IMG/VR virus record: IMGVR_UViG_3300017988_000845
Coordinates: 1 to 55,347 of that record
Source: a virus
Lineage: Duplodnaviria > Caudoviricetes
Strand: one strand, 5' to 3'
DNA: 55,347 bases
The position numbers and the translations under genes are program-made. Under the pieces are notes generated by a model. The model was not told the DNA's origin and searched no databases. It saw only the letters and a list, made by a program, of their open reading frames with translations. Shown here piece after piece: positions 666 to 34,239 of this stretch (its first letter is position 1; each line of letters begins with the position of its first letter).

Positions 666-1082
666 TTAGTAGCTCCCGCCTTCGACTTGAACGATGACGC
701 CTGTTTGCGTGATGCTCAAGCCGGCAACCAAAGCCCATCCTGCTGGGAGTGCGATCGGAAATAGATTCGGATTGTCCACCGCTTCCAATGTTTGTCCGGG
801 AAGGGCCTGCCCCGTGGAAGCGGTTTGTATTGGCAATTGCACTTCATTATACAGGAAGTAGCCCGATGTTGCGGTATTGTACCGCCAGAGCAGCACGCTT
901 CCGGATACCGTGGTGGCGACCGGTTGGATGACGATTCGTTCGATCTCGGCGCCGATCGATCCGGATGGAGAGAACACGGTAGCCGTATTCGAGCCGGGAG
1001 CCGCACGCGTCCCAGTGATCGCCGTAGTCAATAAGGCGCCGCTGACAGTTGGCGTGCTGGCGAAATTCGGGGTTGCTGCCAT
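666..1082 (-). CDS. Putative tail fibre-associated virion protein
   Basis: 138 aa, Ala/Thr/Ser/Gly-rich, tightly packed between fibre genes. Confidence 0.55.
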   Translation of the reverse strand: MAATPNFASTPTVSGALLTTAITGTRAAPGSNTATVFSPSGSIGAEIERIVIQPVATTVSGSVLLWRYNTATSGYFLYNEVQLPIQTASTGQALPGQTLEAVDNPNLFPIALPAGWALVAGLSITQTGVIVQVEGGSY

Positions 1083-1090
1083 GATATCTC

Positions 1091-2341
1091 CTAGAGAAGT
1101 AGCCCTTGCATATAAAGAGAAGTATTCCCGGTCGCATTTATGGTTGCCGGTGAGATGCCGCTGTCACCAACGGTGCCGTTCGCATCGAGGAATTCGGCAA
1201 AATTGCCAGTATTAATACTTCCCGAGCCACTGGCCATTGCCACGGTACCTGTCAATGCTGACTGCGTCGGTCCCTGTTTGACCGTTCCGCTGACATCCGC
1301 GAAAACGGCGACATAATTCGGAGTGATACTCCCTGATCCACTGGCCATCGCCACAACGCCGGTCCGCGCCGATTGCGCTGGTCCGTTGGTAACATTGCCG
1401 TGGGTGTCACTGAATTGGGCGAGATTGCCAACGATCGTGCTGCCTGAGCAAGTGACCGACTGGTTCGGTGATGCCGCGGTGATCTGCCACAAGCCGAGAA
1501 CACCTTGGACAGTGACGAGTGCGCCTTGCTGAATGGATAAACTGGAAATACCCGAGGAGTAATTTCCCGGAGTTCCATAGATCAGATCGCTGCCGCTCGC
1601 CACTAATGACAACGCGCCGGATGTTGGATTCACGGTGAAGCTGACGCCATTCGCCGAGGCGACGGCCGGCAATGTCGCGGTACCGGAGGCGCTGAACTGA
1701 ATGGTCTTTCCGCCATGCGTCAGGACAGATAGGATAAGCGACCCCGAAGCTTGAACCGTTTGCGTTGCCCGTGTCGTGGATGCCCGCTGCTGATACGTCG
1801 TATTGATGGCGGTCAGGGTGCTTGCACCCGATGCGATGGTATAGCGTCCGATTTCGAAGGTCGTTTGATTGTCCGGCGCCGTTGTCGATGCCGTCATCGC
1901 CAGGCTATCGACGTTGAGCGCGTAGGCGGTATAGGGAACGAATTGGGGGTTGTAGTCCGGATGCCCGGGCGGCGGTCCCGGAACGGTGTACGGATTCTCC
2001 TGAATCATTGCATACGAGGCCAGGAGATAAGCGGTTACCGCGGCACCGGACGAAGGCACCGTACCTGAGAAATTGACAGTATATGTCGAAGATGTGGCTC
2101 CGCTGACCGTACCGCTCGCGGCGGCTAATACGCCACTGCCGAATAGAACCTGGAACGGCAGGGGAGCCTGGACTGTCGCAATAAGGCCGCTGGTCGTGAT
2201 GCCCACCGATTCCGGATGAATAAGTCCAGGCTTCAATGCGCCGGACGCCGTCTGCGCGAATGATCCGCTGACGGCTCCAGCCGCGGCATTCAATGTCGCG
2301 GCATTCAAATATTCGTACTGGGCGAAGTTCGCGGTTTGCAT
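1091..2341 (-). CDS. Tail fibre / distal baseplate protein
   Basis: 416 aa, immediately downstream of the baseplate wedge genes. The C-terminus has 37-aa repeats of the GNxAxFxDxxGxV type seen in phage fibres. Confidence 0.65.
   Translation of the reverse strand: MQTANFAQYEYLNAATLNAAAGAVSGSFAQTASGALKPGLIHPESVGITTSGLIATVQAPLPFQVLFGSGVLAAASGTVSGATSSTYTVNFSGTVPSSGAAVTAYLLASYAMIQENPYTVPGPPPGHPDYNPQFVPYTAYALNVDSLAMTASTTAPDNQTTFEIGRYTIASGASTLTAINTTYQQRASTTRATQTVQASGSLILSVLTHGGKTIQFSASGTATLPAVASANGVSFTVNPTSGALSLVASGSDLIYGTPGNYSSGISSLSIQQGALVTVQGVLGLWQITAASPNQSVTCSGSTIVGNLAQFSDTHGNVTNGPAQSARTGVVAMASGSGSITPNYVAVFADVSGTVKQGPTQSALTGTVAMASGSGSINTGNFAEFLDANGTVGDSGISPATINATGNTSLYMQGLLL
1160..1445 (-). repeat. 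About 2.6 imperfect tandem copies of a 111-bp (37-aa) coding repeat
   Basis: GSTIVGNLAQFSDTHG..VAMASGS / GSITPNYVAVFADVSG..VAMASGS / GSINTGNFAEFLDANG. The DNA word ccactggccat recurs 111 bp apart. Confidence 0.75.
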
Positions 2342-2369
2342 GGCGTCCCGGCGCGTGTGTGTTCATGCA

Positions 2370-2404
2370 AGATTAGCAGGTGCGTGGGGCGGGCGAGATA
2401 CCTA
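2370..2404 (-). promoter_or_regulatory. Putative late promoter TAGGTAT-N22-TAATCT
   Basis: Copy of the recurrent motif, upstream of the 1091..2341 gene. Confidence 0.7.
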
Positions 2405-3037: not shown

Positions 3038-3042
3038 CGGTG

Positions 3043-4212
3043 TTAATCCAATGAGAAGGTAAGGCCGCCAAGAACGACGCGCCCACTGACCGGAGGCGAA
3101 ATGCCATTAACCGCCGTCACCATTCCCGAAGTGGCGTAGAGCGATACCGAGAGAGAATCCATCAGGCCAAGAACAGAGTTGCCGACTGCCGTAGTGAGGA
3201 GTCCGGCCGATCCCGAGGCGCCAAAAGGCAAGGTGAAATAGCCCGATACCGCCGCTGCCATAAGACCGCTGACCGTGGCGTCGGTGGATAGACTGGAAAC
3301 CATGCCGGATATACCGACATAGGCATAGGTTGGTATTACGCCAGATATCGTGTAGGGAACACCGGCGTCACGATATTGTTTTCCGGTTCCGCTTATCCCG
3401 CCATTCAGAAATGTGGTGACGGCGGCGATCAAACTGGCCGATGCGGACCCCGTGCCATTGTCAATGATCAATGTCCAACTGGCGGTGCCTGATCCGGCAC
3501 CCGATCCCGCGAAGGCGAATGGTTCATAGCATGTCGCGAAGCGGACGACTTCCCCTGTTCCCGAAGACGTGACCCCGATTGCCGCGTTGGCGATAGCGTA
3601 GGGTGATGCGGCGGGAATGGCACCGACCGTTGAATAGAATCGCGCCAGCGTCTGGCTGAATTGTTCCGCAGGCGCGCCACCTGAGAATACGTTCGGATTG
3701 GTCACGAACAGGGGGTAAAGAAGCCCGGTGACGATCTGCGTAATGCCACTCGCCGGTACATTCCCGGTTGTTCCACCGACGGCCGCCAAAGCCGGAACGA
3801 GAACGGTTGCCGCGCCACTTGCCAATGTACCGGAAGCGGTCGTCGAAAATTGAATTCCCCCAGGCGTTTGGATAATGGTTCCGGAAGGAATGAAAACATT
3901 CTGCGTAGCCGCCGGTGGGGAGGCCAGGGTGCTTGTCATGAATTGCGCGAGACCGGATGCGGGCATGACGGGGTAGGGAGAAATGCCGAGCAGCCCCATT
4001 GCGCCATAAATCAGGGCTTGCGCTGCCGCGGCCTGCGTCCAGGCGCCTTGCATCTCGACAACGGAGCCGATGCTCTCGGCAATTGTCCTGATCTGCGATC
4101 CACTGTTGTAATCCGTAAGGACCCCGGACAGAGCGGCCATCGAGGCAAGAAGTTGAGAAGCGACATCCTGCGTTGATGGCGGCGCGGCGACGGTCGGTTC
4201 GAGCGTGGTCAT
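3043..4212 (-). CDS. Baseplate J-like wedge protein
   Basis: TDYNSGSQIRTIAES, IPSGT, GGTTGNVPAS.IT, VTNP..FSGG..E are baseplate J motifs. Confidence 0.85.
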   Translation of the reverse strand: MTTLEPTVAAPPSTQDVASQLLASMAALSGVLTDYNSGSQIRTIAESIGSVVEMQGAWTQAAAAQALIYGAMGLLGISPYPVMPASGLAQFMTSTLASPPAATQNVFIPSGTIIQTPGGIQFSTTASGTLASGAATVLVPALAAVGGTTGNVPASGITQIVTGLLYPLFVTNPNVFSGGAPAEQFSQTLARFYSTVGAIPAASPYAIANAAIGVTSSGTGEVVRFATCYEPFAFAGSGAGSGTASWTLIIDNGTGSASASLIAAVTTFLNGGISGTGKQYRDAGVPYTISGVIPTYAYVGISGMVSSLSTDATVSGLMAAAVSGYFTLPFGASGSAGLLTTAVGNSVLGLMDSLSVSLYATSGMVTAVNGISPPVSGRVVLGGLTFSLD

Positions 4213-5654
4213 GTTCCTATTACCTCATTGACGCTGGCATTCTGTTGCCCGTTGCCGATCGGTTGAACATTGGCGGTGAATTGTATACTTGTTCCGGAAA
4301 GAAGGTTAGCTATGGCGGAGGGCACAGAACGAACGCGCGGATCGGATAGCAATGCACTCTTGCCGAATGCATTGATCTGCGCGGCGGAAGAAGCATCCGA
4401 GATGGCGCCAATCTCCGCCGGTATCCGGCTCCCATAGGCGCCGTGATAAATGAGACTTCCCAATGGCGTTTGGAGTCTTCGCCCGAGCGCCCAGGCTAGA
4501 TTGCTGATTCCAGTGATCGTTTGGAAATCTCCCGTCCAGGCGGGCATACTGCCATTGATCGGTCCGACATAAAGATCAGTTCCCAGGAAATTGTCGTTGT
4601 AAGATGGCGGGATTCCCGCGGCGGAGCTGGATACGCCCGGGGATGGAAGGATCAATGTCGATCCCCACGCGGCTACGCCCGGGGATTCCTGTGCTGCCGT
4701 GTAGGGTGGCTGTAATCCATTGAGCGTGGCGATCTGCGTCCAGAGTTCAAAATTTCCAAGAGCACGAGCCGCTACGTCCATCAAGGTCTCGCCGTTGAGT
4801 AAGACGGTCTGTTGAATCTGCGCAGTGGGTGGTGTGCCCAGGACAAGCAGCAACGTGGCGATTTGATTGGCTATGGTCAGCAATGCATAGCGCATGGCAA
4901 CCGATTGTTGGTTCGCTTGATTCGAGGGATTGCCATTCAGAACCGCCGCATCGGCAACCATCGCTGTCAGCGTTACGATCTGGTTCCAGGCGTTGGTGAA
5001 GCCGACGTCAAAGGCGACTGGACCCGAGCCAAAGGAATTGATGAAATAGGCCGCTTCCTGCGCGCAAAGATATTGGCGAAAGGCCACATCGCGCAATTGG
5101 GTAGGCATGCTGCCTTGCGATACGGCTATCGCATTGAACACTACGTCGAACGCATTGGCGCAGGCGGCCGCATCGGCGGCAAAGGTCGCTGAAGTCAGGC
5201 CGAGCGGTGGAGTCTCATAGGCAAACGCCTCATAGAATTCCAGCAATCCGGAATAAGGAATGGCTGGTACGCCGGAAGAAAGAGCGCTGCCTGTCGGGAA
5301 TGGCGGTTGCGGAGCTATGGCCGTCAATGCCGGCGCCGCAGTCTGATAAGCTGCCAAGCGTGCATTAAAATAGGTTGCGGAAAGCGGATCAACCCCACTA
5401 AGAGGCAAGACGGATACCGCCAATAGATTGCTCGCTTCGGCCTGCCATGCCCGCCCGATTGAATATGCGTTGATGGCATCAACCGCATTGAGCAGGGTAC
5501 TCAACATGGTCTTGGAGATGCTTACCGTAGTCGCCGGTGATGCCAACGCCGCGGGAGATGTTATCTGGCCGAGATAATAGCCCAACGCGGCATAGGTCGC
5601 TTGCCAGACTTGCCCTGTGTATCCGCCAAAGGTGTATCCGCTGGTGCTCGTCAT
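4209..5654 (-). CDS. Baseplate protein with LysM-like domain and C-terminal gp25/gpW-like domain
   Basis: GETLMDVAARALGNFELWTQIATLNGL is LysM-like. GDFQTITGISNL..ALGRRLQTPLGSLIYH..YGS..LLSDPRV is gp25-like. Start may be 5654 or 5660. Confidence 0.75.
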   Translation of the reverse strand: MTSTSGYTFGGYTGQVWQATYAALGYYLGQITSPAALASPATTVSISKTMLSTLLNAVDAINAYSIGRAWQAEASNLLAVSVLPLSGVDPLSATYFNARLAAYQTAAPALTAIAPQPPFPTGSALSSGVPAIPYSGLLEFYEAFAYETPPLGLTSATFAADAAACANAFDVVFNAIAVSQGSMPTQLRDVAFRQYLCAQEAAYFINSFGSGPVAFDVGFTNAWNQIVTLTAMVADAAVLNGNPSNQANQQSVAMRYALLTIANQIATLLLVLGTPPTAQIQQTVLLNGETLMDVAARALGNFELWTQIATLNGLQPPYTAAQESPGVAAWGSTLILPSPGVSSSAAGIPPSYNDNFLGTDLYVGPINGSMPAWTGDFQTITGISNLAWALGRRLQTPLGSLIYHGAYGSRIPAEIGAISDASSAAQINAFGKSALLSDPRVRSVPSAIANLLSGTSIQFTANVQPIGNGQQNASVNEVIGT

Positions 5655-5656
5655 GA

Positions 5657-6406
5657 TCATAATCCCAAAGCGGAAGCGCCCGGTGTGCTTGGAGCATAGG
5701 CTGTGAGAATAGCATTAAGCGATGAACTGAGATTGCCGAGTAATTGTCCGGCGCTTGTGCTAAGTAAGGTGTTGATTGGATCAGCACCCACTGGAAGCGC
5801 GGGCGCCTGCCCGAGATCAACAATCCCCGCCAACCGGAATGAATACTCGGCAAGGAGGGGCCTGGCGGCAGATTGTCTTATTGGATCCTGCTTGCCAATC
5901 GGCTCTACCTGCCAATAGTCGTCGAGAAAATAATCATAGAATTCTAATACGTATAACGGCTGGTTATTGATCGCTTGCCCAGTATTCAATTGCGCATAGA
6001 GAAGCAGAAATTGTTGCAGGGCAAGGATTGAATCGATGCCTGTATAGGAATATCCATCGGTGGCGTGGAGTTGCCATCCCGTTGTTCCTTCAATCGTGAA
6101 TGTAACAGGGGAATTCCCATAGGCATCCACTTTACGCTGAACACCGGCCTGTGCCTGAGTCCCTGCCACATCGTAAATATTGGACATCGCCGTATAATCA
6201 CGAAACAATGAAGAAGGCGACAGAGGGAAGGTGTAGGAGGCATAGATAGCGGTGGAGGGCTGTGGCCCAACGATCGCCAGGGCATACAGCGCTGATCGTG
6301 TATTTGGAACGGGGTGATTCTGGAACGATTGCCCGGGGCTGTTGGCTCCTGGAGAAAGAGCCTGCGCCGCGAGACCGGCAATGCCGGTGAGAATGCCCGT
6401 TGTCAT
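5657..6406 (-). CDS. Putative baseplate / tail tube initiator protein
   Basis: YTFPLSPSSL...VDAYG..P.TFTIEGTTG pattern and position in the baseplate module. Confidence 0.55.
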   Translation of the reverse strand: MTTGILTGIAGLAAQALSPGANSPGQSFQNHPVPNTRSALYALAIVGPQPSTAIYASYTFPLSPSSLFRDYTAMSNIYDVAGTQAQAGVQRKVDAYGNSPVTFTIEGTTGWQLHATDGYSYTGIDSILALQQFLLLYAQLNTGQAINNQPLYVLEFYDYFLDDYWQVEPIGKQDPIRQSAARPLLAEYSFRLAGIVDLGQAPALPVGADPINTLLSTSAGQLLGNLSSSLNAILTAYAPSTPGASALGL

Positions 6407-8235
6407 TGAAGCACCGCGATTGAATCATTCATGCTGCTGGCGGCGTATAAATGTCCAGCCAACCATTCCAGCGCCGAGAGGCCATTGACCGCAGTCTGAA
6501 GTTGCCCAGGGAACTGTAATACGCTACCACTGGAAGAAACAACAGCACCACTTGTGTATGTATAGAATAGATTGCCGAAGATGACGACCGACACATTTCC
6601 TGATGGATCCCACGCAATCGCATCGGGGATCTGGTTTGCGCCGAGTGTGCCGGAATGCCATGTTCCACTGGCATAGACGGACAGAGCACCATATCTCGTG
6701 CGCGCAGGCGTGAAAGGCGCGGTGAAGTTGTACTGCCACGCTGCTCCGGACCCGGCGACAAAGATGTCCTGGAATCCATTCACATAAGCGCCAAGAACCA
6801 TCGCCGTCGTTCCAGAGGGGGCGGAGACGGTTCCGTATGCGCCATAGGTGGAACCGATGGGTCCAAAAGCGCGGAGAAGATTATTCACTCCGTCGGCGAC
6901 AAGGGTCTGGCTGCGGAAAGAAATTACCCCGCTGGCGCTTCCGGCAAAGGAACCCGAACCAACCACGGCAAATCCGGAGACCACCGCGTAAAGACCGGAG
7001 CTTCCTGAAGTTCCGGCCGCATAAATGTTTTCGTATTGATCCACATACAATGAACCTGGGATGAATCCAAGAGCGACGGTCGACGCAACGGACCATGCTC
7101 CTGATGAAGACAGCCCCATGACCGCCAGGCCCGAACCGCATCCGACGACGGCGCCGGAAGGAGCGTACATAGCCACGGATGTTGCCTGCGCGATAGACAG
7201 CGCGATGCCGGACGACCAGACCCCCGATGCGGTCGCTGAGAGCGGTGTGACCTTGTTTTGCGATGGTTGACAGACAAGAGCGTTCTGGGATGATGCTTCG
7301 ATCGCAACCGCGGTTGCTCCGGAGACCGTAATAGTCTGGGAAGCGGACAAAAGACCGACCGAGTAGGCAAGCACCTTCACATTGCCAGATACCACGTCGC
7401 AAGTAATAGCCTGCTGCCCGTTGGGTACCCAAGCCACATAGGATGGATGCCCAAGGCCGGAGAGCACCGAACCAAATGCCCAGGTGCCGGGAACCGCCGT
7501 CAGGTCCCACACACTGACCGATCCTCCCGAAACGGTAGGGGTAGTGCCCAGGAGGATCGAGCTGAGACTTCCGCCGCCCCCGATCGCCATTGAGGTAAAG
7601 CCGGAACCAAGAACGCCCCAATTCCAACCGCCGACGGCCACCGCTGATGCCGATGATGACGCGGCCAGACAGGTCGGTACGTTCATCTGCGATGAAACCT
7701 GGCCGGAAGTCCCGGTCCCTGATGCGATAAGCGTGACGTAACCCAGATTGCCACTCACCGGATCGATAGAGAAGAGGGTTGATCCCGATGTGGCCAGGGA
7801 CCGGACGGACGATGTTCCGAATGCCGGGGCGATCGTGCGCAGAACACCGCCCGATGCCGCATAGATCGCACCGGAAGTGCTTAGCGCGTAGGCACCGGAA
7901 TATGCTGAAACATAAGCCCCGCCAACCCAGATCGGTGAAGCCCCGCTTGCTGTATATGAGACTACGGCGCCGGATACCGGAAGATTGAGTAAGGCACCGC
8001 TTGTCTGAAGAACCCAGGCGCCAGAACTTGCATCGGTGAACCCGGCGACAAAGCCATTGCCCGATACTCCGACGGCGCCGGAGACATTGAGCGCAGTCAA
8101 TCCCGATACCGCCGGCGCGAATAGCCATGCCGCATCGGCGAAGATTAATGGGTCGACGACGCCGGAGCCTTGCACGGCGAGCGCCATGGACTTCAGCGAG
8201 GCGTTCGGAGGAGGACGGTAATAGAGCGCGCTCAT
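6403..8235 (-). CDS. Ser/Gly-rich, probably beta-rich (propeller-like) virion protein
   Basis: 610 aa, short beta-strand/turn pattern, about 37 SG dipeptides, very few charged residues, preceded by the late-promoter-like motif. Confidence 0.6.
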   Translation of the reverse strand: MSALYYRPPPNASLKSMALAVQGSGVVDPLIFADAAWLFAPAVSGLTALNVSGAVGVSGNGFVAGFTDASSGAWVLQTSGALLNLPVSGAVVSYTASGASPIWVGGAYVSAYSGAYALSTSGAIYAASGGVLRTIAPAFGTSSVRSLATSGSTLFSIDPVSGNLGYVTLIASGTGTSGQVSSQMNVPTCLAASSSASAVAVGGWNWGVLGSGFTSMAIGGGGSLSSILLGTTPTVSGGSVSVWDLTAVPGTWAFGSVLSGLGHPSYVAWVPNGQQAITCDVVSGNVKVLAYSVGLLSASQTITVSGATAVAIEASSQNALVCQPSQNKVTPLSATASGVWSSGIALSIAQATSVAMYAPSGAVVGCGSGLAVMGLSSSGAWSVASTVALGFIPGSLYVDQYENIYAAGTSGSSGLYAVVSGFAVVGSGSFAGSASGVISFRSQTLVADGVNNLLRAFGPIGSTYGAYGTVSAPSGTTAMVLGAYVNGFQDIFVAGSGAAWQYNFTAPFTPARTRYGALSVYASGTWHSGTLGANQIPDAIAWDPSGNVSVVIFGNLFYTYTSGAVVSSSGSVLQFPGQLQTAVNGLSALEWLAGHLYAASSMNDSIAVLQ

Positions 8236-8435: not shown

Positions 8436-8870
8436 ATGAATGCGATGCTTGGATCGAAGTCTATCGTTGCTTTATGCCTATTTTTAGGAATCATTGGCAC
8501 CGCGCACGCACAATCCGCAGCCGGATTCCTGGTCGTTTCGTCCTGTACCTCTGTGCCGAGTTCTCAATTGCCTTATGTCATTGGTTCGGTTCATCCTGGG
8601 ACGATGGACCCTTACGGTAATATCTGCAATTTTGATTCACCCTTCATGGGTAGTATCGCCATGACCGACGGCACGGTCTATACGGCGCAACGCTCGATTG
8701 GTTTCAATTGCACCGTGGCTGGTAATGTCATTGTCACATTCTGGGATGGCTCGACGACGCAAGTACCGCTCGGTGTCGGTTGGCAAACATTCCCGTTTGC
8801 AGCGGTGAAATGGACGGCCAGCGGAGTCAGTGGCTCGGCTGCGACGGCAACGGCGGTGAATCTGAGATGA
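8436..8870 (+). CDS. Secreted protein (signal peptide)
   Basis: KSIVALCLFLGIIGTAHA|Q has a hydrophobic core and an AxA cleavage site. Confidence 0.7.
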   Translation: MNAMLGSKSIVALCLFLGIIGTAHAQSAAGFLVVSSCTSVPSSQLPYVIGSVHPGTMDPYGNICNFDSPFMGSIAMTDGTVYTAQRSIGFNCTVAGNVIVTFWDGSTTQVPLGVGWQTFPFAAVKWTASGVSGSAATATAVNLR

Positions 8871-22240: not shown

Positions 22241-22242
22241 GC

Positions 22243-24155: not shown

Positions 24156-24189
24156 CAAAAATTCTCCAACCGCCCAATCGTGTGATCGC

Positions 24190-24218
24190 ACGCTAGGACG
24201 GCCGGTGAGCACTGTCAA
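24190..24218 (-). promoter_or_regulatory. Sigma70-type promoter TTGACA-N17-TAGCGT for the CDP-sugar cassette
   Basis: Perfect -35, 17-nt spacer and TAnnnT -10 in the gap between the tube gene and rfbG. Confidence 0.65.
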
Positions 24219-24768: not shown

Positions 24769-25122
24769 TCAGTTGCCTTCCCAGATGACCGCGGTCGCGC
24801 CGCTGGCGGAAGCAATGCCATAGAACGCGTTAACCGGTGTGTTCTGGTCGAAGTAAAGCGGCAGTTGCGATGCGATCACCGGCACACCGTTAGCAAGGGT
24901 GACGCCCGACGTGGTACCAACATACATGGTCGTTCCGCTGGCGTTGGCGATGAGGAGAGACTTCCGCGTCGGATTAGCGGCTACCAACAATGACGGCGCG
25001 CCCGAGGCAACACCCGTCACCGTCTGGGTGACGGTCGCGCCATAGGGAAGCGCGGTCACGGCGCCACTGACACCGACGGTACCGGCAATGGCGACTGTGT
25101 TGGAAATTGCGGTAACGGTCAT
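24769..25122 (-). CDS. Small beta-rich virion (decoration-like) protein
   Basis: 117 aa between sheath and tube; ANPTRKSLLIAN.SGTTMYVG; 5 SG dipeptides. Confidence 0.55.
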   Translation of the reverse strand: MTVTAISNTVAIAGTVGVSGAVTALPYGATVTQTVTGVASGAPSLLVAANPTRKSLLIANASGTTMYVGTTSGVTLANGVPVIASQLPLYFDQNTPVNAFYGIASASGATAVIWEGN

Positions 25123-25140: not shown

Positions 25141-26943
25141 TCAGGTCGGCGATCCACCAGTGGAAGATGCTGTCAATGTAATGTTCAACGGCAAGATGTT
25201 GACATACATCGGGATCATTCTATTCTGACCAACCAGAATTACATTCACGGTAATCCCGGCCGTCTGATTAGCTCCCGTATAGACCAATTGCAAGGTCGTC
25301 GGATCCCATGAAGATAGGACACCATTTTGATTGGTCTGCGAATAGATCAACCCGTTCAGCATTTGCTTGGCGGCATTCAGGACAATCGTCTCATTGAACG
25401 GTGAGGCGATGGTACCGACATAGGGTTGCAGCGCGCCCGTCAAAGCATATGCGGCATAATAGCGGCAAGCTACCTGCTGATTGAACACATTTTCGGGGTT
25501 CGCATCGTCAAGCCAAGTCGTGAAATCAGAAAGAACCGTTGGAAGACCAGTGATCTGCGATACAGCAATCGGCATTACGCCGCCTTGCTGGAGTTGATCA
25601 ATCTGCGACACCGTAAGCGCAATCTCAACGCCATTGCCAGTAAGCGATTTGTTGGTGAGCGGAGTCGCCGGCGGATTGCCCGTCGCCATGCCAGCTACTG
25701 CCGCGGCTGCATAAAGCCCACCATGCAGTTCATTCACGCCTGTCTGGATATTCGTCCGATAAATACCGGGATAGACATAAGTCGCATTGATCTCGCTCAT
25801 CGAAGCGGCAGCGGCCAATGTTGTCGAAATCGAATCACCGATCGACGATCCCGAGAAGAACCGGCGCCATGATTTATTGGTGATCGAACTCGCTGTCTGC
25901 ACGTGCTGCGCGCCGAGCGCGATGACGCCAGACGCATTGCTGCCAGCGAATACCGCCCAACCTGGGACAGTCAAAGCGGCATTAAATCCCGAAGCATAAT
26001 TCGCCGTAGTCGGTGTAACGCTCGTTGCGCCAGAGAACAGCGTGTAGGGGATATTCGTCGGAGCGACCCCCGATGAGGAGGTGATGCCGCTGGCGATGAC
26101 CGCCGAAGCATAGCCGGACGCATACTGATTAACCCAGAAGACAATGTCGCCTAGCGTAGCGTTGACACCTACATATTGGTCGACACCGGAAACCGGAATA
26201 CCCAGGGAAATACCGGACGCGGCATCCAGGCTCGATGATGGCAGAGCGCCATTCGACAGAACATAGGCGGAATAATATCCAGTTCCGCTCAAATACTGAA
26301 CAACCTGTTCGACTGTTGCATAGGCTCCAAGATTGAGAGTCACTGATTCACCCGCATTCGGGCTATTCGTCTGGAAGGTGACCGCGTTGTTCGCGCCCGA
26401 TGCAATGACCGAATAGGTAACGCCTGTTGCCGTTCCCGTATAGGCCAGGTTGAATGGCACACCAAGATTGACGCCCGTTACCGAAAGATTGGCGTACTGA
26501 TCATAAAGTGAAACATTCTTGCCAGCCGCGGTGCCAGTTTGCAATTGCGCCTGCAATTGATTCGACGGCAACCCATAATTGGCCGACGTCAAATTGATGA
26601 CGCCCGAGGAACCTGAGTTGAGAGTCAGCGAAGACTGCGTATTCGGCGCAACGTTAATGAAGGTGATCTGGCCGGCGCCGTTCAACTGCCCGGATGGATT
26701 GGTCAAGAACGGCACAAAGCCAGAAGCCGGACCGCCACGAATCGCCGCGAGCAACTGTGCCGACAAGGTACTACCGGCGAAGGTCGTCGGAGTGAATGGC
26801 TTCAGGCCATAACTGTTACCGAGAAAGATAAGCGGCGGTGTCGCTGGCTGCGTGGAACCAAGCGCATTCGACACGTTGTCCGCGTAATAGGCACCGGGAA
26901 GAACGAGCGTCGAGCCATTGAAATTGACGTCAAGGTTGGGCAT
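25141..26943 (-). CDS. Contractile tail sheath protein
   Basis: 600 aa; LPGAY N-terminus; AAAAVAGMA.G..PATPLTNKSL, IDQLQQGGV, DFTTW are sheath C-terminal motifs. Confidence 0.88.
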   Translation of the reverse strand: MPNLDVNFNGSTLVLPGAYYADNVSNALGSTQPATPPLIFLGNSYGLKPFTPTTFAGSTLSAQLLAAIRGGPASGFVPFLTNPSGQLNGAGQITFINVAPNTQSSLTLNSGSSGVINLTSANYGLPSNQLQAQLQTGTAAGKNVSLYDQYANLSVTGVNLGVPFNLAYTGTATGVTYSVIASGANNAVTFQTNSPNAGESVTLNLGAYATVEQVVQYLSGTGYYSAYVLSNGALPSSSLDAASGISLGIPVSGVDQYVGVNATLGDIVFWVNQYASGYASAVIASGITSSSGVAPTNIPYTLFSGATSVTPTTANYASGFNAALTVPGWAVFAGSNASGVIALGAQHVQTASSITNKSWRRFFSGSSIGDSISTTLAAAASMSEINATYVYPGIYRTNIQTGVNELHGGLYAAAAVAGMATGNPPATPLTNKSLTGNGVEIALTVSQIDQLQQGGVMPIAVSQITGLPTVLSDFTTWLDDANPENVFNQQVACRYYAAYALTGALQPYVGTIASPFNETIVLNAAKQMLNGLIYSQTNQNGVLSSWDPTTLQLVYTGANQTAGITVNVILVGQNRMIPMYVNILPLNITLTASSTGGSPT

Positions 26944-27204: not shown

Positions 27205-28065
27205 TTACCCAGACGCGGTGACACTGGTATTGATCGCATGCACGCCATCGGGAGTGGTACCGACAAAGGTAATGGTCTCCATGATTCCATAATTCTGTGT
27301 GATCGCAATGTTGAAAGTGCCCTTGACCTCACACAGAATGTCCGCACCATAAAAGCCAGGCGACATTCCATTTGGATCGTCCGCCATCTGATAACTCGAT
27401 GCCTGCCATCTATGCGTGACATTGTCGCCAAGATTATTGAATACCGAAGCAATCAATGAAATGAATATTCCGATACACGCATCTCGGTAATAATCACGAT
27501 CGGCTGTATTCGTTGCCATCACGGTAATACGGAAAACTCGCTTGGCCTGCTCGGTAACCGCCCACGTTCCTGTATAATCGGGCTGACTGATCGATTGCCC
27601 GACAGGAACTTCCTGTTGCTGAATGAGATCCTGATTTATGGTGACAAAGGGCATTGGCGGAATGCCGACGATCGGCATTTGCTGAAGAACCTGTACATTA
27701 CTATTAACGCCATTTGGCGGGGTCAGATTACTTATGCCCGCCTGAAACAATCGAATCATCAGATACAGCCATGGCTCTATCTCGACGTTCAGTTGCGGTG
27801 ATGGTTGATATGCCGCTGATTGTGTCGTTCCATTGGCATCTTGCAATTGATAAACGTAGAGAGACCCAGATGACAGCGGCGCCGGCAAATAATCTCCGGC
27901 ATCGATGTAAGCGGCGACGGGAGACCCTGAATAAAGCGTGGTAAACGGGCCAAGGCCTCCAACACCGGAGACTGCCCGCGAAAGCACCATACCACTGCCT
28001 GACGCACTGATACTTAGGGTAATAGCGCCACCAGTCGGGACGGATTGGCCAAGAATAGAAGACAT
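27205..28065 (-). CDS. Neck / tail terminator-type protein
   Basis: Start re-called at MSSILGQ; position between head completion and sheath genes. Confidence 0.55.
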   Translation of the reverse strand: MSSILGQSVPTGGAITLSISASGSGMVLSRAVSGVGGLGPFTTLYSGSPVAAYIDAGDYLPAPLSSGSLYVYQLQDANGTTQSAAYQPSPQLNVEIEPWLYLMIRLFQAGISNLTPPNGVNSNVQVLQQMPIVGIPPMPFVTINQDLIQQQEVPVGQSISQPDYTGTWAVTEQAKRVFRITVMATNTADRDYYRDACIGIFISLIASVFNNLGDNVTHRWQASSYQMADDPNGMSPGFYGADILCEVKGTFNIAITQNYGIMETITFVGTTPDGVHAINTSVTASG

Positions 28066-28604
28066 CAGGCGTAAGCTCCCTTCCTGTATTTTGCCGCTAT
28101 GAGTTGAGCCATGATATGCGCCGGTGCATATGCCGGCATTGACGGAATGGTCCACGCCGGTCCGGTCCCCGACGTATTCATTCTGTTTGGTCGCTCATGC
28201 GGAACCTTGACATATCCTGACAGATTACGCCCGGCGGAAACCGCCCAGATATATCCACCCTTGACCTTTCTACGCGTCTGTAATTTTCGCCCAACCCCTC
28301 CCCGATGCATAGGATAGCTGCGCCCGGCCGTCAGATGTTGCAGCATGTCGATACGTCCATGCCCTTCCTCCAACCAACGCGCTTCCGCGGCCTTTGACTC
28401 ATCGGCCATGACAGTAACGACTGTTGGCGTTGTTCGCATGCGTAGAGACGACGCGTAGCGGCCGGTCGGATGCTTGATCATCAATCCGCCAATATCGGTC
28501 AACCCGAGCGCGAATTCCGACCACATGCGAAAGACTTCCAATCCTACGGCATTCAGGCGATCGGGCGGCAAATCGGTGACGACATCGTAAACGATATTGG
28601 GCAT
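28065..28604 (-). CDS. Tail completion / neck protein (HK97 gp10-like)
   Basis: Basic protein with TGRYASSL and A.WLEEGH motifs. Confidence 0.6.
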   Translation of the reverse strand: MPNIVYDVVTDLPPDRLNAVGLEVFRMWSEFALGLTDIGGLMIKHPTGRYASSLRMRTTPTVVTVMADESKAAEARWLEEGHGRIDMLQHLTAGRSYPMHRGGVGRKLQTRRKVKGGYIWAVSAGRNLSGYVKVPHERPNRMNTSGTGPAWTIPSMPAYAPAHIMAQLIAAKYRKGAYA

Positions 28605-28609
28605 AATCG

Positions 28610-29410
28610 TCACGCTCCCGAAATGATCGGGATGTCGGCGCCGAACTTGGCACGACTCCATAGATCCAGGGTCTGTAGCCGGAAGCGCCGGGGTTCGGTC
28701 AATTGGCCGAATGGCCGCACATGCGCGGGCATGCCGGCAATTCTAAAGGCAACGTAGGCTGGCGCCGCAGTGAAATCGACAATGTAATTGGTTCCTTGGG
28801 GATAGCCAGATCCCAAATGTACCGCCGTCCCCGACACTGTATAGGCAACGCCAGATACCACCACATGATTAATCGGATCATAGATGGTCACCGCACCAGA
28901 TGCGGCAATGACCAAATTCTGTTGATAGGGGACATTCTGATTTCCGCCAACCTGAAGCTGGGCATTGAATCTGGATTCGGCGTCCTGCTCAACAAAAATG
29001 TCAAACAGCCCCGCTTCTTGCCAGATCGTCGGTTGCATAGGAAACGCGCCGGAATAGGGGACGGTAAGTGTCGGCTCACCGTTGACGATAAGTCCCTGAT
29101 TGATATCCATCGACGAACCCGGTTCATCAGGGGTAGGCCCACGATGGACGAAGGTCAAAAGAGCATTGAACGGTCCAATCGGTTGATCCCAATAGACACC
29201 ACGCCCATGACAGGTTTGGCACTGATTATCTGGAGTTCCTGGAGCATTATAATTGCCAAAAACACAAGCGCAACTATGGCTTTTCAGCCACTGCATACGA
29301 ATTCCATAAGCAGAAATCGCTTGCTCAAAGTATTGAGGAGCCAGAATATATGGAGATATGCTGGGCAAAAATGGCGTATATACTGTAGGATCGGGCACAC
29401 CGGAGACCAT
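28610..29410 (-). CDS. Head completion (stopper-like) protein
   Basis: W.KSHSCAC...PDNQCQTCHGRG Zn-type motif seen in SPO1-like head completion proteins; position. Confidence 0.65.
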   Translation of the reverse strand: MVSGVPDPTVYTPFLPSISPYILAPQYFEQAISAYGIRMQWLKSHSCACVFGNYNAPGTPDNQCQTCHGRGVYWDQPIGPFNALLTFVHRGPTPDEPGSSMDINQGLIVNGEPTLTVPYSGAFPMQPTIWQEAGLFDIFVEQDAESRFNAQLQVGGNQNVPYQQNLVIAASGAVTIYDPINHVVVSGVAYTVSGTAVHLGSGYPQGTNYIVDFTAAPAYVAFRIAGMPAHVRPFGQLTEPRRFRLQTLDLWSRAKFGADIPIISGA

Positions 29411-29424: not shown

Positions 29425-30441
29425 CTAAAGTGTGTTGAACACAGGACCCTCGACCTTGCTCTTAGCCATCTGCAGCAATTTTGTCTTCATCTTGGTGAAT
29501 TGCCCGATAAGCCCAGAGAATGGCCCGGATGCTGGGTACTTGAACTGCTGCCCGAGACCATCAACCAGCGTCTGTACGCCCTCGGCACCCAGATTAATTG
29601 TACCCTGAACCGCCGACAACGCCATGATCGCCGCTTCGCAAAGCACGAGTTGCTGCATGAAGGCGAATCGCGATTGATAATCGAACGGGGTTAAGCCCGC
29701 CGTGTACTGATACCAAAGCGCACCTGGAACATTCTCAGCAAATCCCATGAAGGCCAATTGCATGGCGAACAATGGCAACATCTGAACATTCTGCGCAGGC
29801 ACCAGACGAATCAAGCCAAAGTCCTTATCCTCGACATACCATCCGGGGGGCACACGGAAAAAGACATTCAGCAAGGGATAGATATAAGCAATGTTCTTAA
29901 CCGCGGTAATACCCGCTGTCGCATTGTTCTGAGCCGCGCCGGATGTCACGCCATAAGCCAGACTCTGTACTGGACGATAGCGCAAAGTCTGCATCATCCA
30001 GCCTTCATCCTGAGCGCGACTGAACATGAAGTCATAGGCGCTGTCTTCCAGATCATAATCGTAACCCTGCTGCTGAAAGGCACTTGGCGTATTGACGTCC
30101 AGGCCAACCGCAGCGGTAATTGAGGGTGTCAGCGTCGGGGGCGAGGCTACCCACGTCTGGCACAACAGAATCGATGTCTCCTGCTCAACCGTATCCTCAG
30201 CCCATCGCAACCATTGGAGAATTGTTCCAGATGCGACAGGAATCGGCGGATTGCCATAATAGTTCAATGGCACCCCGACAAAATTCTGCAAATCCTGCGG
30301 CGTTAAGCCTGTTTTCGTTTGCGTAAAAACACCAGGCAACTGCGGATATCCGGAAACCACCGGAATGGCCCCAGACGTATCCCACAGCCATAACGCCTGG
30401 GTCGGAACCGGAGGAGCGTAACCTGAGCCGAAGACCGGCAT
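29425..30441 (-). CDS. Head-tail adaptor / neck protein
   Basis: AEDTVEQET.I, LRYRPV, YTAG, VDGL patterns; position after the capsid gene. Confidence 0.65.
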   Translation of the reverse strand: MPVFGSGYAPPVPTQALWLWDTSGAIPVVSGYPQLPGVFTQTKTGLTPQDLQNFVGVPLNYYGNPPIPVASGTILQWLRWAEDTVEQETSILLCQTWVASPPTLTPSITAAVGLDVNTPSAFQQQGYDYDLEDSAYDFMFSRAQDEGWMMQTLRYRPVQSLAYGVTSGAAQNNATAGITAVKNIAYIYPLLNVFFRVPPGWYVEDKDFGLIRLVPAQNVQMLPLFAMQLAFMGFAENVPGALWYQYTAGLTPFDYQSRFAFMQQLVLCEAAIMALSAVQGTINLGAEGVQTLVDGLGQQFKYPASGPFSGLIGQFTKMKTKLLQMAKSKVEGPVFNTL

Positions 30442-31315: not shown

Positions 31316-31402
31316 TGGCGGAAGGCCGAGGACACGATCCCCTTACCTCGCGGTACGATCTCGCTTCGAACGAGCCCCGGTGTCCTGCCCGGTAGACCTT
31401 CC
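31316..31402 (-). tRNA. tRNA-Ser(CGA), 8/4 fold
   Basis: Acceptor GGAAGGTC/GGCCTTCC (8 bp), T-stem GGGG/CCTC (4 bp), loop TT-CGA-AG, long variable arm, G73, CCA. Confidence 0.85.
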
Positions 31403-31405
31403 AGG

Positions 31406-31494
31406 TGGCGGATGGCAGTGGTCCCGATCCACAAGCACTCTACATGCTCCAGCCGCTTAGCAGGCGGCGCTGGACCTTGTCCAGTTTACCATCC
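31406..31494 (-). tRNA. tRNA-Ser(GCT), 8/4 fold
   Basis: Acceptor GGATGGTA/TGCCATCC, T-stem GTGG/CCAC, anticodon arm GCCGC-CT-GCT-AA-GCGGC, long variable arm, GCCA end. Confidence 0.88.
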
Positions 31495-31497
31495 AAT

Positions 31498-31586
31498 TGG
31501 CGGAGAGCGGATGCACTCGAAGCTCAGGAACTTTCATCCCCCATCCCGCTTCAAACGGGCGCCGGTCCCTGCCCGGTTCACTCTCC
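31498..31586 (-). tRNA. tRNA-Ser(TGA), 8/4 fold
   Basis: Acceptor GGAGAGTG/CGCTCTCC, 4-bp T-stem with a bulge, CCCG-TT-TGA-AG-CGGG, long variable arm, GCCA end. Confidence 0.85.
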
Positions 31587-31676: not shown

Positions 31677-31680
31677 AGAA

Positions 31681-31852: not shown

Positions 31853-31928
31853 TGGTGCCCAAGATCTCGAATCGAACGGACGACCTCACTCTTACAAGGA
31901 GTTTGCTCTACCACTGAGCTACAAGGGC
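31853..31928 (-). tRNA. tRNA-Thr(TGT), imperfect acceptor stem
   Basis: TAGCTCAGTGGTAGAGC D-arm, ACTC-CT-TGT-AA-GAGT, TTCGA T-loop, ACCA end; two T.T mismatches in the acceptor stem. Confidence 0.75.
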
Positions 31929-31933
31929 AGAAA

Positions 31934-31958
31934 TGGCGCCCGGGGAGAGGAATCAAAC
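31934..31958 (-). pseudogene. 3' fragment of a truncated tRNA
   Basis: GTTTGATTCCTCTCCCCGGGCGCCA (T-loop, acceptor 3' strand, CCA) abuts the inverted-repeat element. Confidence 0.6.
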
Positions 31959-32368
31959 GGGACTTATATAGATAACTCCCTTATTGGTCGGGATCAGCAT
32001 CGCCCTCGATGTCCGTGGCAAGCCCCAACAGCTTTTTGTGGTAGGTGTCCAACCGCTCAAAATGAGCCTGGATTGCTCCGGCAATTTCTTTCGAGTTTTT
32101 TACCGCAAGAAAATGTCCGACGATTTCTTGATCTTCGTCGCCTTACGCTTTCGCGCCTTCCCGGCCTTGGACTTCGGCTTCGGTCGGAACGACAGATTAG
32201 TTCACCTGCGGTGACTGGTTACCAAACGGCTGTCAACTGGAAAATTTATACCCCGAATCATGCAGATTCGCAAACAGGTTTGTCTAATCAACAAAATGCA
32301 TAGCGGCGCTTTAGTTTTCGGCGAACGACTAAACCTCCTTAATTTAGGGAGTTATCTATATAAGTCCC
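31959..32368. mobile_element. 410-bp non-autonomous MITE-like element with 22-bp terminal inverted repeats (possible IS1595-family remnant)
   Basis: GGGACTTATATAGATAACTCCC (31959-31980) and its exact reverse complement (32347-32368). No transposase and no target duplication seen. Confidence 0.7.
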
Positions 32369-32383
32369 AATTATTTGTCAAAT

Positions 32384-32423
32384 ACCAAAAACCCCCCTGA
32401 AGTTAATCAGGAGGGTTTTTGGT
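32384..32423 (-). terminator. Rho-independent terminator after the major capsid gene
   Basis: Hairpin ACCAAAAACCCtCCTGA-ttaact-TCAGGgGGGTTTTTGGT, 22 nt after the capsid stop. Confidence 0.75.
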
Positions 32424-32445
32424 TCTTTTAGCGAAAAATCACCAG

Positions 32446-34239
32446 TTATGTGGCATTCGCGTTCGCCTGCAACGGATAAAAGTTCGTATTATCGGGCACG
32501 TAGTTCTTCACGAGACCATTGAACTTGCTGATCTTAACTCGCACGGAACCAATCTCAGCAACCGCCCAAGGCATGTAGAGGTTGGCGGCGAATAATTCTA
32601 TCCGGGTCAATGGCAGCAAGAACCGGAAGTCCACGGCCTGGTCATTCTCGTCCAAGTCGAGCAGGAAGATGGTCTCACTGCCCGGGATGTAGGTGTTGTT
32701 GTCGACGAACGTAACCGCCGAAGCGCCACTGGCCGCGACCGTACCGATGTAACGATAAGCTGCCGCATTGGCCACGCCCGAGGACGCCGGCGCATAGCCC
32801 AGGCCCGACCGGTAGATACGGAAGGCCGCGGCATCAGCCGCCGTTGGTCCGGTGATGGACAACGAGTACGCGCCGCTGACCGCAGCAACACCAGAGATGG
32901 ACAGCGTGCTGCCCGATCCCGCGCCGCTCGCCAGGTAGGTCAAGTACGATTCGTTCATTGAACTGTCGCACGAGGCCACGGCGTAGGAGTAAACGCCCGA
33001 GGACGCCGCATAGGCCGCGGTCCACGCACTGCCACTGGCAACCGTCCCAGTGACCGCTGTGGCGGTAACGCTGGCCGGCGGGGTCGGGGCGGAAGTAGAA
33101 GCGGCATTGGCGCCATTGCCGTAAACAATGGTTTGGGCTGGTTTGTCGCGCGCGGTGATGTAGAAGTCGATCGGGAACTGAATCTCGCCGAAGCGGGTCC
33201 GGATACCCTGGAGATCGCCATCAACGATCACGCCATGAACACTCTCCATCGTCGGCGTCAGACGCGTAACGATGTTGTTCAACAGCGTAGTCACCAAGCT
33301 CTGCAAGGAACCGGCGCATACCGGGCTCATGAAGGCATGAGTGATACGACCGTACTGGCGATAGCTGGTGATCGACGCAGCCGCTTCATAGATCAGGTTG
33401 AACAGAGCCTGCGCGCTGCTCCAACCCTGAGCCGAGGCATAGGTGTTGTAGAATGATTGATAGTCAAAGATGTTGCCGCTCGGAATGACACCGGCAATGC
33501 CCTGGAACTGATTGGCAAACAGGGTCGGATTGCCCCAGTAGCAGCAATAGTTCACCGATTCAAGAACGGTCAGGGCAGCGTTGATATTTTCCTGCGCCGT
33601 CACATCGACGAAGCTATTCTGCGCAGCCAACGCGGTGGTGATTGCACGTCCATTCACCGCCAACTTCAGGGTGATGTTATTGAGCTGATAGACACCAGCC
33701 GATGTGGACAACGTGCCAGAAGCAACATTGCCAAAGCCCTGGAATGCGGTGCCCGGCAATCCGCCGCCGGTGTCGGAGGCATACGGCCAGTAATCGACGA
33801 CCTGAAACGCAGCGGACTTGTGAAGAGCCTGATACAGCGTGAAGCTGTTCGGCCGCACAGTGCCGCGGGCCATCTGGGTATCGAGAGACACATAACCGAG
33901 GGACTGACCTCCGGTAATCGACGCGAAAGTGGTCAATGTATTGACGTCAAGCTGTGCCTTGGAGATGGCGCCCTTGGCAAGCAGGTCTTCATTCGTTGGG
34001 AACCGTGCCCGACGCGTGTTCTGCCGGAACATCTTGGAAATGGCATTGGCCTTGGCTATGGCCGGCGCCGTGTCCCGCTGTACCTTCTCAACCAAATCGG
34101 GATTCATCCCCGCGAAGGACATATAAACATCCTTCAGGGGATCGTTCGGGTTGATGTGCCTGATCATCACGTCGAGGGCTTGGCCCATCGCCATGTCGAA
34201 CTGGGCTTTGCTGGTGATGAGGTTACCGCCGTCGGGCAT
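32446..34239 (-). CDS. Major capsid protein with Ser/Gly/Ala-rich insertion domain
   Basis: 597 aa after protease and scaffold, strong GC3 bias, own terminator. GGQSL..VSLD, E.INAAL.VL..V...YWGN..L..NQFQGI and LLPL.RI.L resemble SPO1-like capsid motifs. Confidence 0.85.
   Translation of the reverse strand: MPDGGNLITSKAQFDMAMGQALDVMIRHINPNDPLKDVYMSFAGMNPDLVEKVQRDTAPAIAKANAISKMFRQNTRRARFPTNEDLLAKGAISKAQLDVNTLTTFASITGGQSLGYVSLDTQMARGTVRPNSFTLYQALHKSAAFQVVDYWPYASDTGGGLPGTAFQGFGNVASGTLSTSAGVYQLNNITLKLAVNGRAITTALAAQNSFVDVTAQENINAALTVLESVNYCCYWGNPTLFANQFQGIAGVIPSGNIFDYQSFYNTYASAQGWSSAQALFNLIYEAAASITSYRQYGRITHAFMSPVCAGSLQSLVTTLLNNIVTRLTPTMESVHGVIVDGDLQGIRTRFGEIQFPIDFYITARDKPAQTIVYGNGANAASTSAPTPPASVTATAVTGTVASGSAWTAAYAASSGVYSYAVASCDSSMNESYLTYLASGAGSGSTLSISGVAAVSGAYSLSITGPTAADAAAFRIYRSGLGYAPASSGVANAAAYRYIGTVAASGASAVTFVDNNTYIPGSETIFLLDLDENDQAVDFRFLLPLTRIELFAANLYMPWAVAEIGSVRVKISKFNGLVKNYVPDNTNFYPLQANANAT

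Follow-up and report, generated by a model that had tools for sequence, protein, structure and literature searches.

A directional Ser-Gly excess in the virion proteins of a contractile-tailed phage clade and its possible link to O-glycosylation

The virion proteins of a contractile-tailed phage (Duplodnaviria, Caudoviricetes), known from the IMG/VR virus record IMGVR_UViG_3300017988_000845, carry far more Ser-Gly dipeptides (SG) than their amino-acid composition predicts, and the reverse dipeptide, Gly-Ser (GS), does not share this excess. The window analysed here is the whole record of 55,347 bases; its genes lie nearly all on the minus strand, and it probably represents about 60% of a genome, since complete relatives are 94 to 111 kb long. 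The SG excess is confirmed as real, strong and specific, and it is not required by the folds of the proteins that carry it. A literature search at title and abstract level found no published description of a Ser-Gly excess on phage virions. What would a phage gain from placing serine before glycine all over its particle? The reading that we favour, with a probability of roughly 0.4, is O-glycosylation of the SG serines by phage-encoded glycosyltransferases, as suggested by the sequences and the gene content of the clade.

Size, specificity and location of the excess

The head genes of the window encode a portal, a protease, a scaffold-like protein and the major capsid protein, with a 1275-amino-acid (aa) glycosyltransferase between portal and protease and a terminase represented by its C-terminal part. 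The tail side adds the neck proteins, the sheath and its tube, the tape measure, the baseplate and a fibre. Each protein was compared with 5000 composition-preserving shuffles of its own sequence, and SG was in excess at z > 3 in ten proteins (z 3.1-7.7), among which GS was in no excess. The structural genes concerned are the following (z refers to SG unless stated).

666-1082, minus strand: 138-aa protein, downstream of the fibre; SG 4, GS 4; z 2.75 for SG, 2.74 for GS
1091-2341, minus strand: 416-aa fibre-like protein, labelled 'fibre' only for its position after the baseplate genes (no match in Pfam and PHROG searches); SG 21, GS 9; z 7.0
3043-4212, minus strand: baseplate J, 389 aa (Pfam PF04865, E 5.9e-15); SG 19, GS 6; z 6.1
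4209-5660, minus strand: 483-aa baseplate protein (phrog_975); excess confined to its N-terminal half
6403-8235, minus strand: 610-aa virion protein, predicted tandem beta-propeller; SG 37, GS 15, expected 13.1; z 7.7, the strongest excess
10844-11797, minus strand: 317-aa protein, possibly spike-like (weak GpV Apex match below cut-off, E 0.0027); SG 9, GS 3; z 3.1
16538-18847, minus strand: tape measure or lytic tail protein (phrog_2013); SG 6, expected 5.8, z 0.09; an internal negative control
24228-24749, minus strand: tail tube (phrog_985); no SG, 2 GS; an internal negative control
24769-25122, minus strand: 117-aa protein between sheath and tube, found in the window only (no homologue by tblastn over nine related genomes); SG 5, GS 0; z 4.1
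25141-26943, minus strand: tail sheath, 600 aa (phrog_279); SG 15, GS 7; z 3.7
27205-28155, minus strand: 316-aa neck or tail protein; SG 7, GS 5; z 2.3
28610-29410, minus strand: 266-aa virion structural protein (phrog_1004); SG 7, GS 2; z 4.9
29425-30441, minus strand: 338-aa head-proximal protein; SG 7, GS 1; z 4.9
32446-34239, minus strand: major capsid protein, 597 aa (phrog_752); SG 11, GS 6; z 3.5
41070-42812, minus strand: portal, 580 aa (PHROG portal families); SG 10, GS 0; z 3.2; differing flank context

The hand counts of the preliminary description, which had first pointed to the dipeptide, were all exact, both for the SG-rich proteins (610-aa protein 37 SG and 15 GS, baseplate J 19 and 6, fibre 21 SG, sheath 15, 117-aa protein 5, capsid protein 11) and for the lower SG counts elsewhere (tape measure 6, 1275-aa glycosyltransferase 6, RfbH 1, portal 10). 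Its argument that SG exceeding GS cannot be put down to composition alone is borne out by the shuffles, in which GS stays flat. A pool of 18 virion proteins (6559 aa) contains 170 SG where 66.9 are expected (z 14.1); SG is the sole outlier among the 400 dipeptides, the runner-up reaching z 3.7. GS (z 1.2) and Thr-Gly (TG; z 0.0) are at expectation, Ala-Gly and Gly-Gly are depleted, and none of Thr, Ala, Asn and Asp is enriched before Gly. The 21 non-virion proteins (7008 aa) hold 37 SG against 36.2 expected (z 0.1); the 1275-aa glycosyltransferase (z 0.6) and RfbH are likewise without excess. Some proteins of the structural module lack it as well: SG is absent from the tail tube, a 249-aa protein and the protease, the scaffold-like protein shows no excess, and that of the 138-aa protein is not directional, its SG and GS z values being nearly equal.

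The codons used at SG sites are those used elsewhere (chi-square p 0.27 for Ser, 0.97 for Gly), and hexamers that code for SG number 25.9 per 1000 in frame 0, as against 5.4 to 9.5 in each of the remaining five. The bias therefore acts on the protein and not on the DNA, and a DNA-level cause was rejected. A shared SG-rich domain was rejected too: in cross-protein BLAST comparisons among the SG-rich proteins, every match had E > 0.1, so that no common domain is detectable.

The surroundings of the dipeptide are characteristic. Ser is preceded by A, V, S or T at 103 of 168 sites, so that the context first proposed, (A/V/S/T)-S-G, was roughly right; A or V stands at position -1 with about twice the expected frequency, and the residue after the Gly is A, V, S or T. 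Positions -5, -3, -1, +3 and +5, which do not share the phase of the Ser, tend to be hydrophobic, and glycines preceded by residues other than Ser have no such flank context. Acidic flanks are nearly absent: D is found before the Ser at 2 of 152 sites and after the Gly at a single one, and E occurs at neither -1 nor +1. The sequon of animal proteoglycan xylosylation needs acidic neighbours. The analogy drawn with it at the outset thus fails on context; common to both is Ser followed by Gly, a two-letter likeness only, whereas the animal modification uses other enzyme families and the secretory pathway, and the flanks in the window are A, V, S and T.

Where do the sites lie within the proteins? 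Their exposure was judged from secondary structure, domain position and flank pattern. In the sheath, all 15 fall in residues 74-364 (z 5.2 for residues 71-370), and residues 1-70 and 371-600 hold none. The predicted model of this protein (pLDDT 82.7) has the sheath fold, matching the phage 812 sheath with Z 34.4 and rmsd 3.0 over 512 residues, and its alignment to minimal sheaths, of which that of pyocin R2 is one, covers about 300 residues (Z 28.7-29.0). It is the inserted domains of sheath proteins that point outward, the conserved C-terminal domain being turned towards the tube. By predicted structure, 6 of the 15 SG serines lie in loops, 5 in strands and 4 in helices, and the helical ones mean that SG is not only a hairpin-turn motif. 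A similar clustering is seen in the capsid protein, with 9 of 11 SG in residues 391-510 (segment z 4.7), and in the 483-aa baseplate protein, where residues 1-240 hold 5 against 1.4 expected (z 3.3) and residues 241-483 hold 1 against 2.2. The AlphaFold2 model of the 610-aa protein (pLDDT 86.4, pTM 0.82) has 56 strands; Foldseek matches it to tandem WD40/DDB1 propellers with probability 1.00 and E of about 1e-15, yet with TM-scores of 0.21-0.38 and rmsd > 22 Å. Sequence searches of the PDB with the sheath and the 610-aa protein returned nothing usable.

Distribution among relatives and selection on the serine

The excess is a trait of the clade and not a property of the folds. In the near-complete related genomes G001 and G002, SG is again the top dipeptide of the virion orthologues (z 9.7 and 10.1) and is unremarkable outside the structural module (z 0.4 and -0.2); the tail tube orthologues of G001, G002 and G003 have no SG at all. 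Across 120 baseplate J homologues (44-65% identity), the mean is 13.0 SG and 6.8 GS against 5.4 expected, SG exceeds GS in 113 of the 120, and TG is flat. Thirteen propeller homologues reach SG z values of 2.3-9.1, and 120 capsid homologues average 7.8 SG and 5.0 GS against 3.8 expected. The strength of the excess varies: for the baseplate module, the ratio of observed to expected SG is 2.66 in the window (85 vs 31.9, as summed per-protein values) and ranges from 1.12 to 2.64 in relatives, with the low-SG in-clade genomes G007, G008 and G012 at 1.53 at most (1.37 to 1.53). The gene sets of the relatives come from a simple open reading frame (ORF) caller, and whole-contig totals may include spurious or mis-started ORFs.

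Beyond the clade, the excess disappears. The 23 virion proteins of T4 hold 76 SG and 76 GS against 69.4 expected, and there is no excess in two distant glycosyltransferase-less phages, Thermus phage Lalka27b (19 vs 20.3) and Pseudomonas phage Dolphis (54 vs 43.4). Nor is there one in 99 outgroup capsid proteins (mean SG 2.87 vs 2.98 expected; representatives of at least 440 aa, 99 of 129 ids, set beside 11 full-length in-clade proteins); the in-clade capsid proteins exceed these in length by about 100 residues. The baseplate J proteins of three Desulfosporosinus prophages show no excess (SG 3 to 4 vs about 3), and the modules of these prophages overall have a mild SG background of 1.2 to 1.5 times. 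A general property of the outer proteins of myoviruses is thus ruled out by T4, Dolphis, Lalka27b, the outgroup capsids and the Desulfosporosinus baseplate J proteins. A tblastn search with baseplate J over 50,697 phage records gave no match, and no cultured relative emerged from this search.

Is it the dipeptide as such that is kept, or a set of inherited positions? When alignment columns with SG in at least half of the sequences were removed, baseplate J still showed 7.6 SG against 4.1 expected, with GS at 4.4 (120 sequences), and the propeller 15.6 against 7.1, with GS at 7.1 (13 sequences). As the excess outlives the removal of these columns, the sites in the baseplate proteins turn over and the excess is kept, with the proviso that misalignment of loops could make the turnover look larger than it is. 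It is the serine that is held: the Ser of SG is conserved above other serines, at 57% vs 42% in the comparison with G001 (p 0.0016) and 43% vs 33% with G002 (p 0.06), and the Gly of SG shows no extra conservation (74% vs 69% and 59% vs 62%, respectively).

Candidate enzymes and alternative explanations

In the reading that we favour, the serine of a loose motif, (A/V)-S-G-(A/S/T/V), would be under selection on the outward-facing proteins of the clade, most likely as the acceptor of a post-translational modification made in the cytoplasm of the host while virions are assembled. Among the conceivable modifications, O-glycosylation by the phage's own glycosyltransferases would be the most plausible; the phage has three glycosyltransferase genes and, besides these, RfbF, RfbG and RfbH. 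The best candidate for the initiating enzyme is a 283-aa GT9-like protein with four cysteines, which would act like the autotransporter heptosyltransferases TibC and AAH, enzymes that decorate many serines and no threonines of a single substrate; the glycan could afterwards be lengthened or varied by a 1275-aa GT2/GT4-like enzyme, a GT34-like enzyme and a CDP-dideoxyhexose pathway. The sugar and the enzyme, like the modification itself, we infer from these genes and the comparisons below. The preliminary description had already taken the dipeptides for selected O-glycosylation sites of the phage's enzymes. This holds up in so far as the excess is directional, Ser-specific and confined to virion proteins and its serine is conserved; it does not extend to the giant glycosyltransferase and the CDP-sugar genes, neither of which tracks the excess. 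The genes in question, several of them dispersed among the structural genes, are these.

20535-21305, minus strand: RfbF, glucose-1-phosphate cytidylyltransferase (TIGR02623, 375 bits; cut-off 300)
23070-24218, minus strand: RfbG, CDP-glucose 4,6-dehydratase (TIGR02622, 405 bits; cut-off 278)
37217-41044, minus strand: 1275-aa multidomain glycosyltransferase between portal and prohead protease (GT2 domain at residues 799-1019, weak GT1-type match at 198-310)
43984-44637, plus strand: GT34-family glycosyltransferase, 217 aa (PF05637, E 2.1e-14)
45030-45881, minus strand: GT9-like glycosyltransferase, 283 aa (PF01075, 42 bits; cut-off 22)
46290-46922, minus strand: methyltransferase adjoining the GT9-like gene (PF08241)
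50263-51570, minus strand: RfbH-type CDP-6-deoxy-4-hexulose 3-dehydrase (NF011936, 580 bits; cut-off 423)

The RfbF, RfbG and RfbH proteins of the CDP-3,6-dideoxyhexose pathway all score above their NCBIfam cut-offs, and neither an E3 reductase nor a final synthase was recognised along with them; together with a transketolase-like gene, their genes occupy 19561-24218, within the tail module, and 50263-51570. Three more genes of the SDR family, of sugar epimerase/reductase type and one of them RmlD-like, are also present in the window.

The PF01075 score of the GT9-like protein places a GT9-type (GT-B) sugar-nucleotide lobe in it, and profile comparisons match it to 3tov (E 4.6e-10), WaaF (1psw, E 4.9e-9) and TibC (E 1.3e-3). 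Directly after this lobe stands a motif C-x2-C-x12-C-x6-C, whose cysteines C242, C245, C258 and C265 are invariant in all four orthologues and which is also found in G014; an unrelated GT9 gene of G007 has no cysteine at the motif's place. A GT9-type lobe links the phage protein to the bacterial autotransporter heptosyltransferases (BAHT; TibC and AAH, acting on TibA and AIDA-I), and the four-Cys motif behind the lobe may be a second common trait; in the excerpts of the TibC study, members of this family are cytoplasmic enzymes that attach sugar to many serines of one folded, beta-rich substrate. The same excerpts describe a four-Cys iron finger in TibC (C339, C342, C358 and C370) that is needed for assembly and substrate recognition, and modification of Ser, not Thr, in TibA, the Ser standing in N-S-G-G and in T-S-A-A (PMC4358343). 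Because the second of these mapped sites is T-S-A-A, SG is not a BAHT sequon.

The differences are considerable. The family model of BAHT, TIGR04414, gives the phage protein 23.9 bits (E 1.8e-5, residues 156-279, up to the C-terminus) against a cut-off of 200, and three of the four GT9-like orthologues match it at all. The phage protein has 283 aa and TibC 406, and the cysteines are spaced by 2, 12 and 6 residues as opposed to 2, 15 and 11 (motifs not placed in register). TibC has an N-terminal beta-barrel of about 97 residues and forms a dodecameric ring; the phage protein is 123 residues shorter, which suggests that the barrel is absent. Its presumed substrates would be many unrelated virion proteins and not one beta-helix. 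The likeness to TibC may thus be one of mode of action and is not family membership. As for the known glycosylation of mycobacteriophage virions, the sugars reportedly sit on C-terminal extensions of capsid and tail-tube subunits and not on a dispersed dipeptide. The phage of the window differs in its host group and its enzymes, and its tube has no SG. There is a precedent in Che8 and related mycobacteriophages for phage glycosyltransferases that O-glycosylate capsid proteins in the host cell, according to excerpts of an account that cites Freeman et al. (Cell Host Microbe, 2023) for it (PMC13445384).

Which of these genes accompanies the excess? In a tblastn presence scan (223 proteins of the window, G001 and G002 over ten genomes), the orthologue of the GT9-like gene was the best discriminator, occurring in 6 of 7 high-SG genomes (ratio >= 2.19) and 0 of 3 low-SG genomes (<= 1.53). 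The methyltransferase (orthologue in G002) came second, with 5 of 7 and 0 of 3. On a baseplate J tree, the high-SG genomes with the GT9-like gene form two well-supported groups, with low-SG G007 and G008 between them, and this separation implies more than one change. From its sequence and distribution, then, the GT9-like protein is the best candidate for an SG-directed enzyme. The GT34 gene occurs in the window only among the ten genomes.

A series of observations weighs against O-glycosylation by these enzymes. The division into high- and low-SG genomes was set after the ratios had been seen, among ten genomes that are all related, and the Fisher p of about 0.03 for the GT9-like gene is uncorrected and concerns those same related genomes. 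G010, 95% complete, has no PF01075 match and still a ratio of 2.23. The GT9-like protein itself scores best on models of lipopolysaccharide heptosyltransferases, where it lies far below the cut-offs. Among unrelated viral contigs, eight that carry GT9-like homologues were compared; over the whole contig their SG ratios lie between 0.84 and 1.37, and none has more than one ORF at z > 3. The gene was accordingly rejected as sufficient for the excess, since unrelated contigs carry homologues without a virion-wide effect. Each of the nine IMG/VR relatives that were the first to be found (G001-G004 and L022-L026) has the giant glycosyltransferase in its slot between portal and protease, and G007 and G008, where the excess is weak, have it too. 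Over 35 metagenome loci, observed SG over expected in the head, neck and sheath proteins was 1.57 in the 26 with this gene and 1.50 in the 9 without it (proteins aligned over at least 150 residues, identical sequences counted once; 'without' meaning none in at least 4.6 kb upstream of the capsid gene, so that the gene could sit elsewhere). With the SG ratio the same in either case, the gene was rejected as the cause. The comparison with glycosyltransferase-less phages, proposed in the preliminary description, thus came out both ways: distant ones (Lalka27b, Dolphis and the outgroup capsids) have no excess, and loci lacking the giant gene equal those that have it. The CDP-sugar genes were likewise rejected: nine related genomes have the excess in part and none of the RfbF, RfbG, RfbH and transketolase-like genes of the window. 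Among the substrates, the capsid protein loses its excess once conserved columns are removed (SG 4.1 vs 3.25 expected, GS 4.6), so that it consists of five fixed columns only, and at some of these Thr stands for Ser, though TG is unenriched. The portal has 10 SG and no GS though it is mostly buried. Of the 37 SG serines in the modelled propeller, 26 belong to loops and 6 are the final residue of a strand, many of them in two-residue hairpins; with most sites at tight turns, a purely structural role is plausible there.

Several further features of these genes stand apart from the comparison. The homologue of the giant glycosyltransferase in the complete low-SG genome G008 (C1:16315-19974) has one in-frame TAA stop. 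On locus L071 (1-4452), roughly the same slot upstream of protease and capsid gene is taken by an ORF of at least 1483 aa that has nothing in common with the glycosyltransferase and carries a GH5 cellulase domain at its C-terminus (E 1.1e-20); next comes a TROVE/VWA protein, and no portal was found on the locus. On L076 (1427-3573), genes for a sugar 4,6-dehydratase-like protein and a C-methyltransferase lie upstream of the head genes, with no giant glycosyltransferase there; the sugar genes of the clade therefore differ in kind and place. Among the unrelated contigs, the four-Cys motif is present in 3 of the 6 GT9-like ORFs whose C-termini were read. Three of the eight (G028, G033 and G025) have an excess of TG instead of SG (whole-contig z 4.4, 3.8 and 2.9), the main source of which in G028 (L210-L213) is a single 181-aa ORF at 12308-12853 that holds 23 TG.

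Could the serines be there for their own sake? A lineage-specific structural or physico-chemical preference, with no modification involved, is somewhat less probable than the reading that we favour: folding, solubility or stability under the conditions in which the hosts live would call for Ser-Gly where exposed, beta-rich domains turn tightly, where their strands end and where their helices are capped, and the glycosyltransferases would have other tasks, for example on host surface polysaccharide or DNA. Such a preference would account for the turn positions in the propeller, the fixed columns of the capsid protein, the excess in the portal, the failure of the giant glycosyltransferase to track SG and the excess of G010 without a GT9-like gene. 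It also agrees with the frequent retention of Gly where Ser changes and with the mild surplus of SG over GS, 1.2 to 1.5 times, in unrelated prophage tail modules, and the GH5 protein in the slot on L071 means that this slot may carry host-directed carbohydrate enzymes. It sits poorly with the same folds lacking the excess in T4, Dolphis, Lalka27b, the 99 outgroup capsids and even the in-clade G007, with an excess that persists at non-conserved positions, with extra conservation of Ser and not of Gly, with the lack of enrichment of Thr, Ala, Asn and Asp before Gly, and with SG in sheath helices. We know of no structural rule that would give a 2.5-fold, one-directional, Ser-only excess.

The serines could also be modified otherwise, by a host enzyme or with a non-sugar group such as phosphate, acyl or nucleotidyl, in which the methyltransferase or unannotated genes might act. 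That no single phage glycosyltransferase tracks the excess perfectly speaks for such a modification, as do the distribution of the methyltransferase gene over the high- and low-SG genomes and the tail-protein methylation by a host enzyme in one mycobacteriophage, as given in excerpts of the same account (PMC13445384). The annotated genes include no kinase, acyltransferase or similar enzyme, many small ORFs being unannotated, and we consider this explanation improbable. It is hardly credible that the excess is an artefact, whether of composition, of repeats, of gene calling or of a bias in the DNA. Ser and Gly are indeed abundant in the virion proteins (making up 15.6% and 13.8% of the 610-aa protein), and one short internal duplication in the fibre carries some of its SG sites, but the shuffles, the flat GS, the unchanged codon use, the frame-specificity and the lack of similarity between proteins all stand against it, and the excess recurs in independently assembled relatives.

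Wider gene content and implications

Some features of the window lie outside the question of the dipeptide. In 31316-31584 (minus strand) and 31853-31928, ARAGORN with relaxed thresholds predicts three tandem tRNA-Ser genes (CGA, GCT and TGA) and, beside them, a tRNA-Thr; at default thresholds, only Ser(CGA) and Thr are found, and the Rfam tRNA model finds Thr only. A supply of unusual Ser tRNAs by the phage would fit its Ser-rich late proteins. A 413-aa ORF at 42816-44057 matches only the C-terminal part of terminase large-subunit profiles. Between it and a 261-aa ORF about 3 kb away (47045-47830) lie the GT34, SLOG (PF10686), GT9-like and methyltransferase genes identified with Pfam; the 261-aa ORF has no Pfam match, and in G004 the homologous sequence belongs to a longer ORF of 644 aa. 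Inside the otherwise minus-strand baseplate module, a 454-aa ORF with a good coding score runs on the plus strand (8780-10144), with no Pfam match and no homologue in nine related genomes. In the related genome G009 (L127:11188-13455), baseplate J has about 755 aa, the two halves of its homology being split by an insertion of about 1 kb within a single open frame.

Finally, we would like to consider what the excess may mean. To our knowledge, glycosylation of phage-particle proteins has been documented only for a few mycobacteriophages. The broadest interpretation of the sequences would be a new sequon system that coats the outer virion with sugar, initiated by a four-Cys GT9 enzyme analogous to the autotransporter heptosyltransferases, which would act on dozens of serines in each of the unrelated capsid, sheath, baseplate and fibre proteins, and extended by variable ones, in the window the 1275-aa transferase, the GT34 enzyme and the CDP-dideoxyhexose genes, with related [S/T]-G codes in many uncultured lineages; taken as a whole, we hold it to be rather unlikely. 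Should the serines turn out to be unmodified, a 2.5-fold, one-directional, Ser-only bias that is selected on unrelated folds would still need explaining. If they are glycosylated, a sequon that can be read from sequence would allow virion glycosylation to be predicted from metagenomes, and there would be a reason for the sugar-nucleotide pathways and glycosyltransferases found inside phage structural modules. Such a coat would then bear on adsorption, on the stability of the particle and on its recognition by antibodies or host defences.

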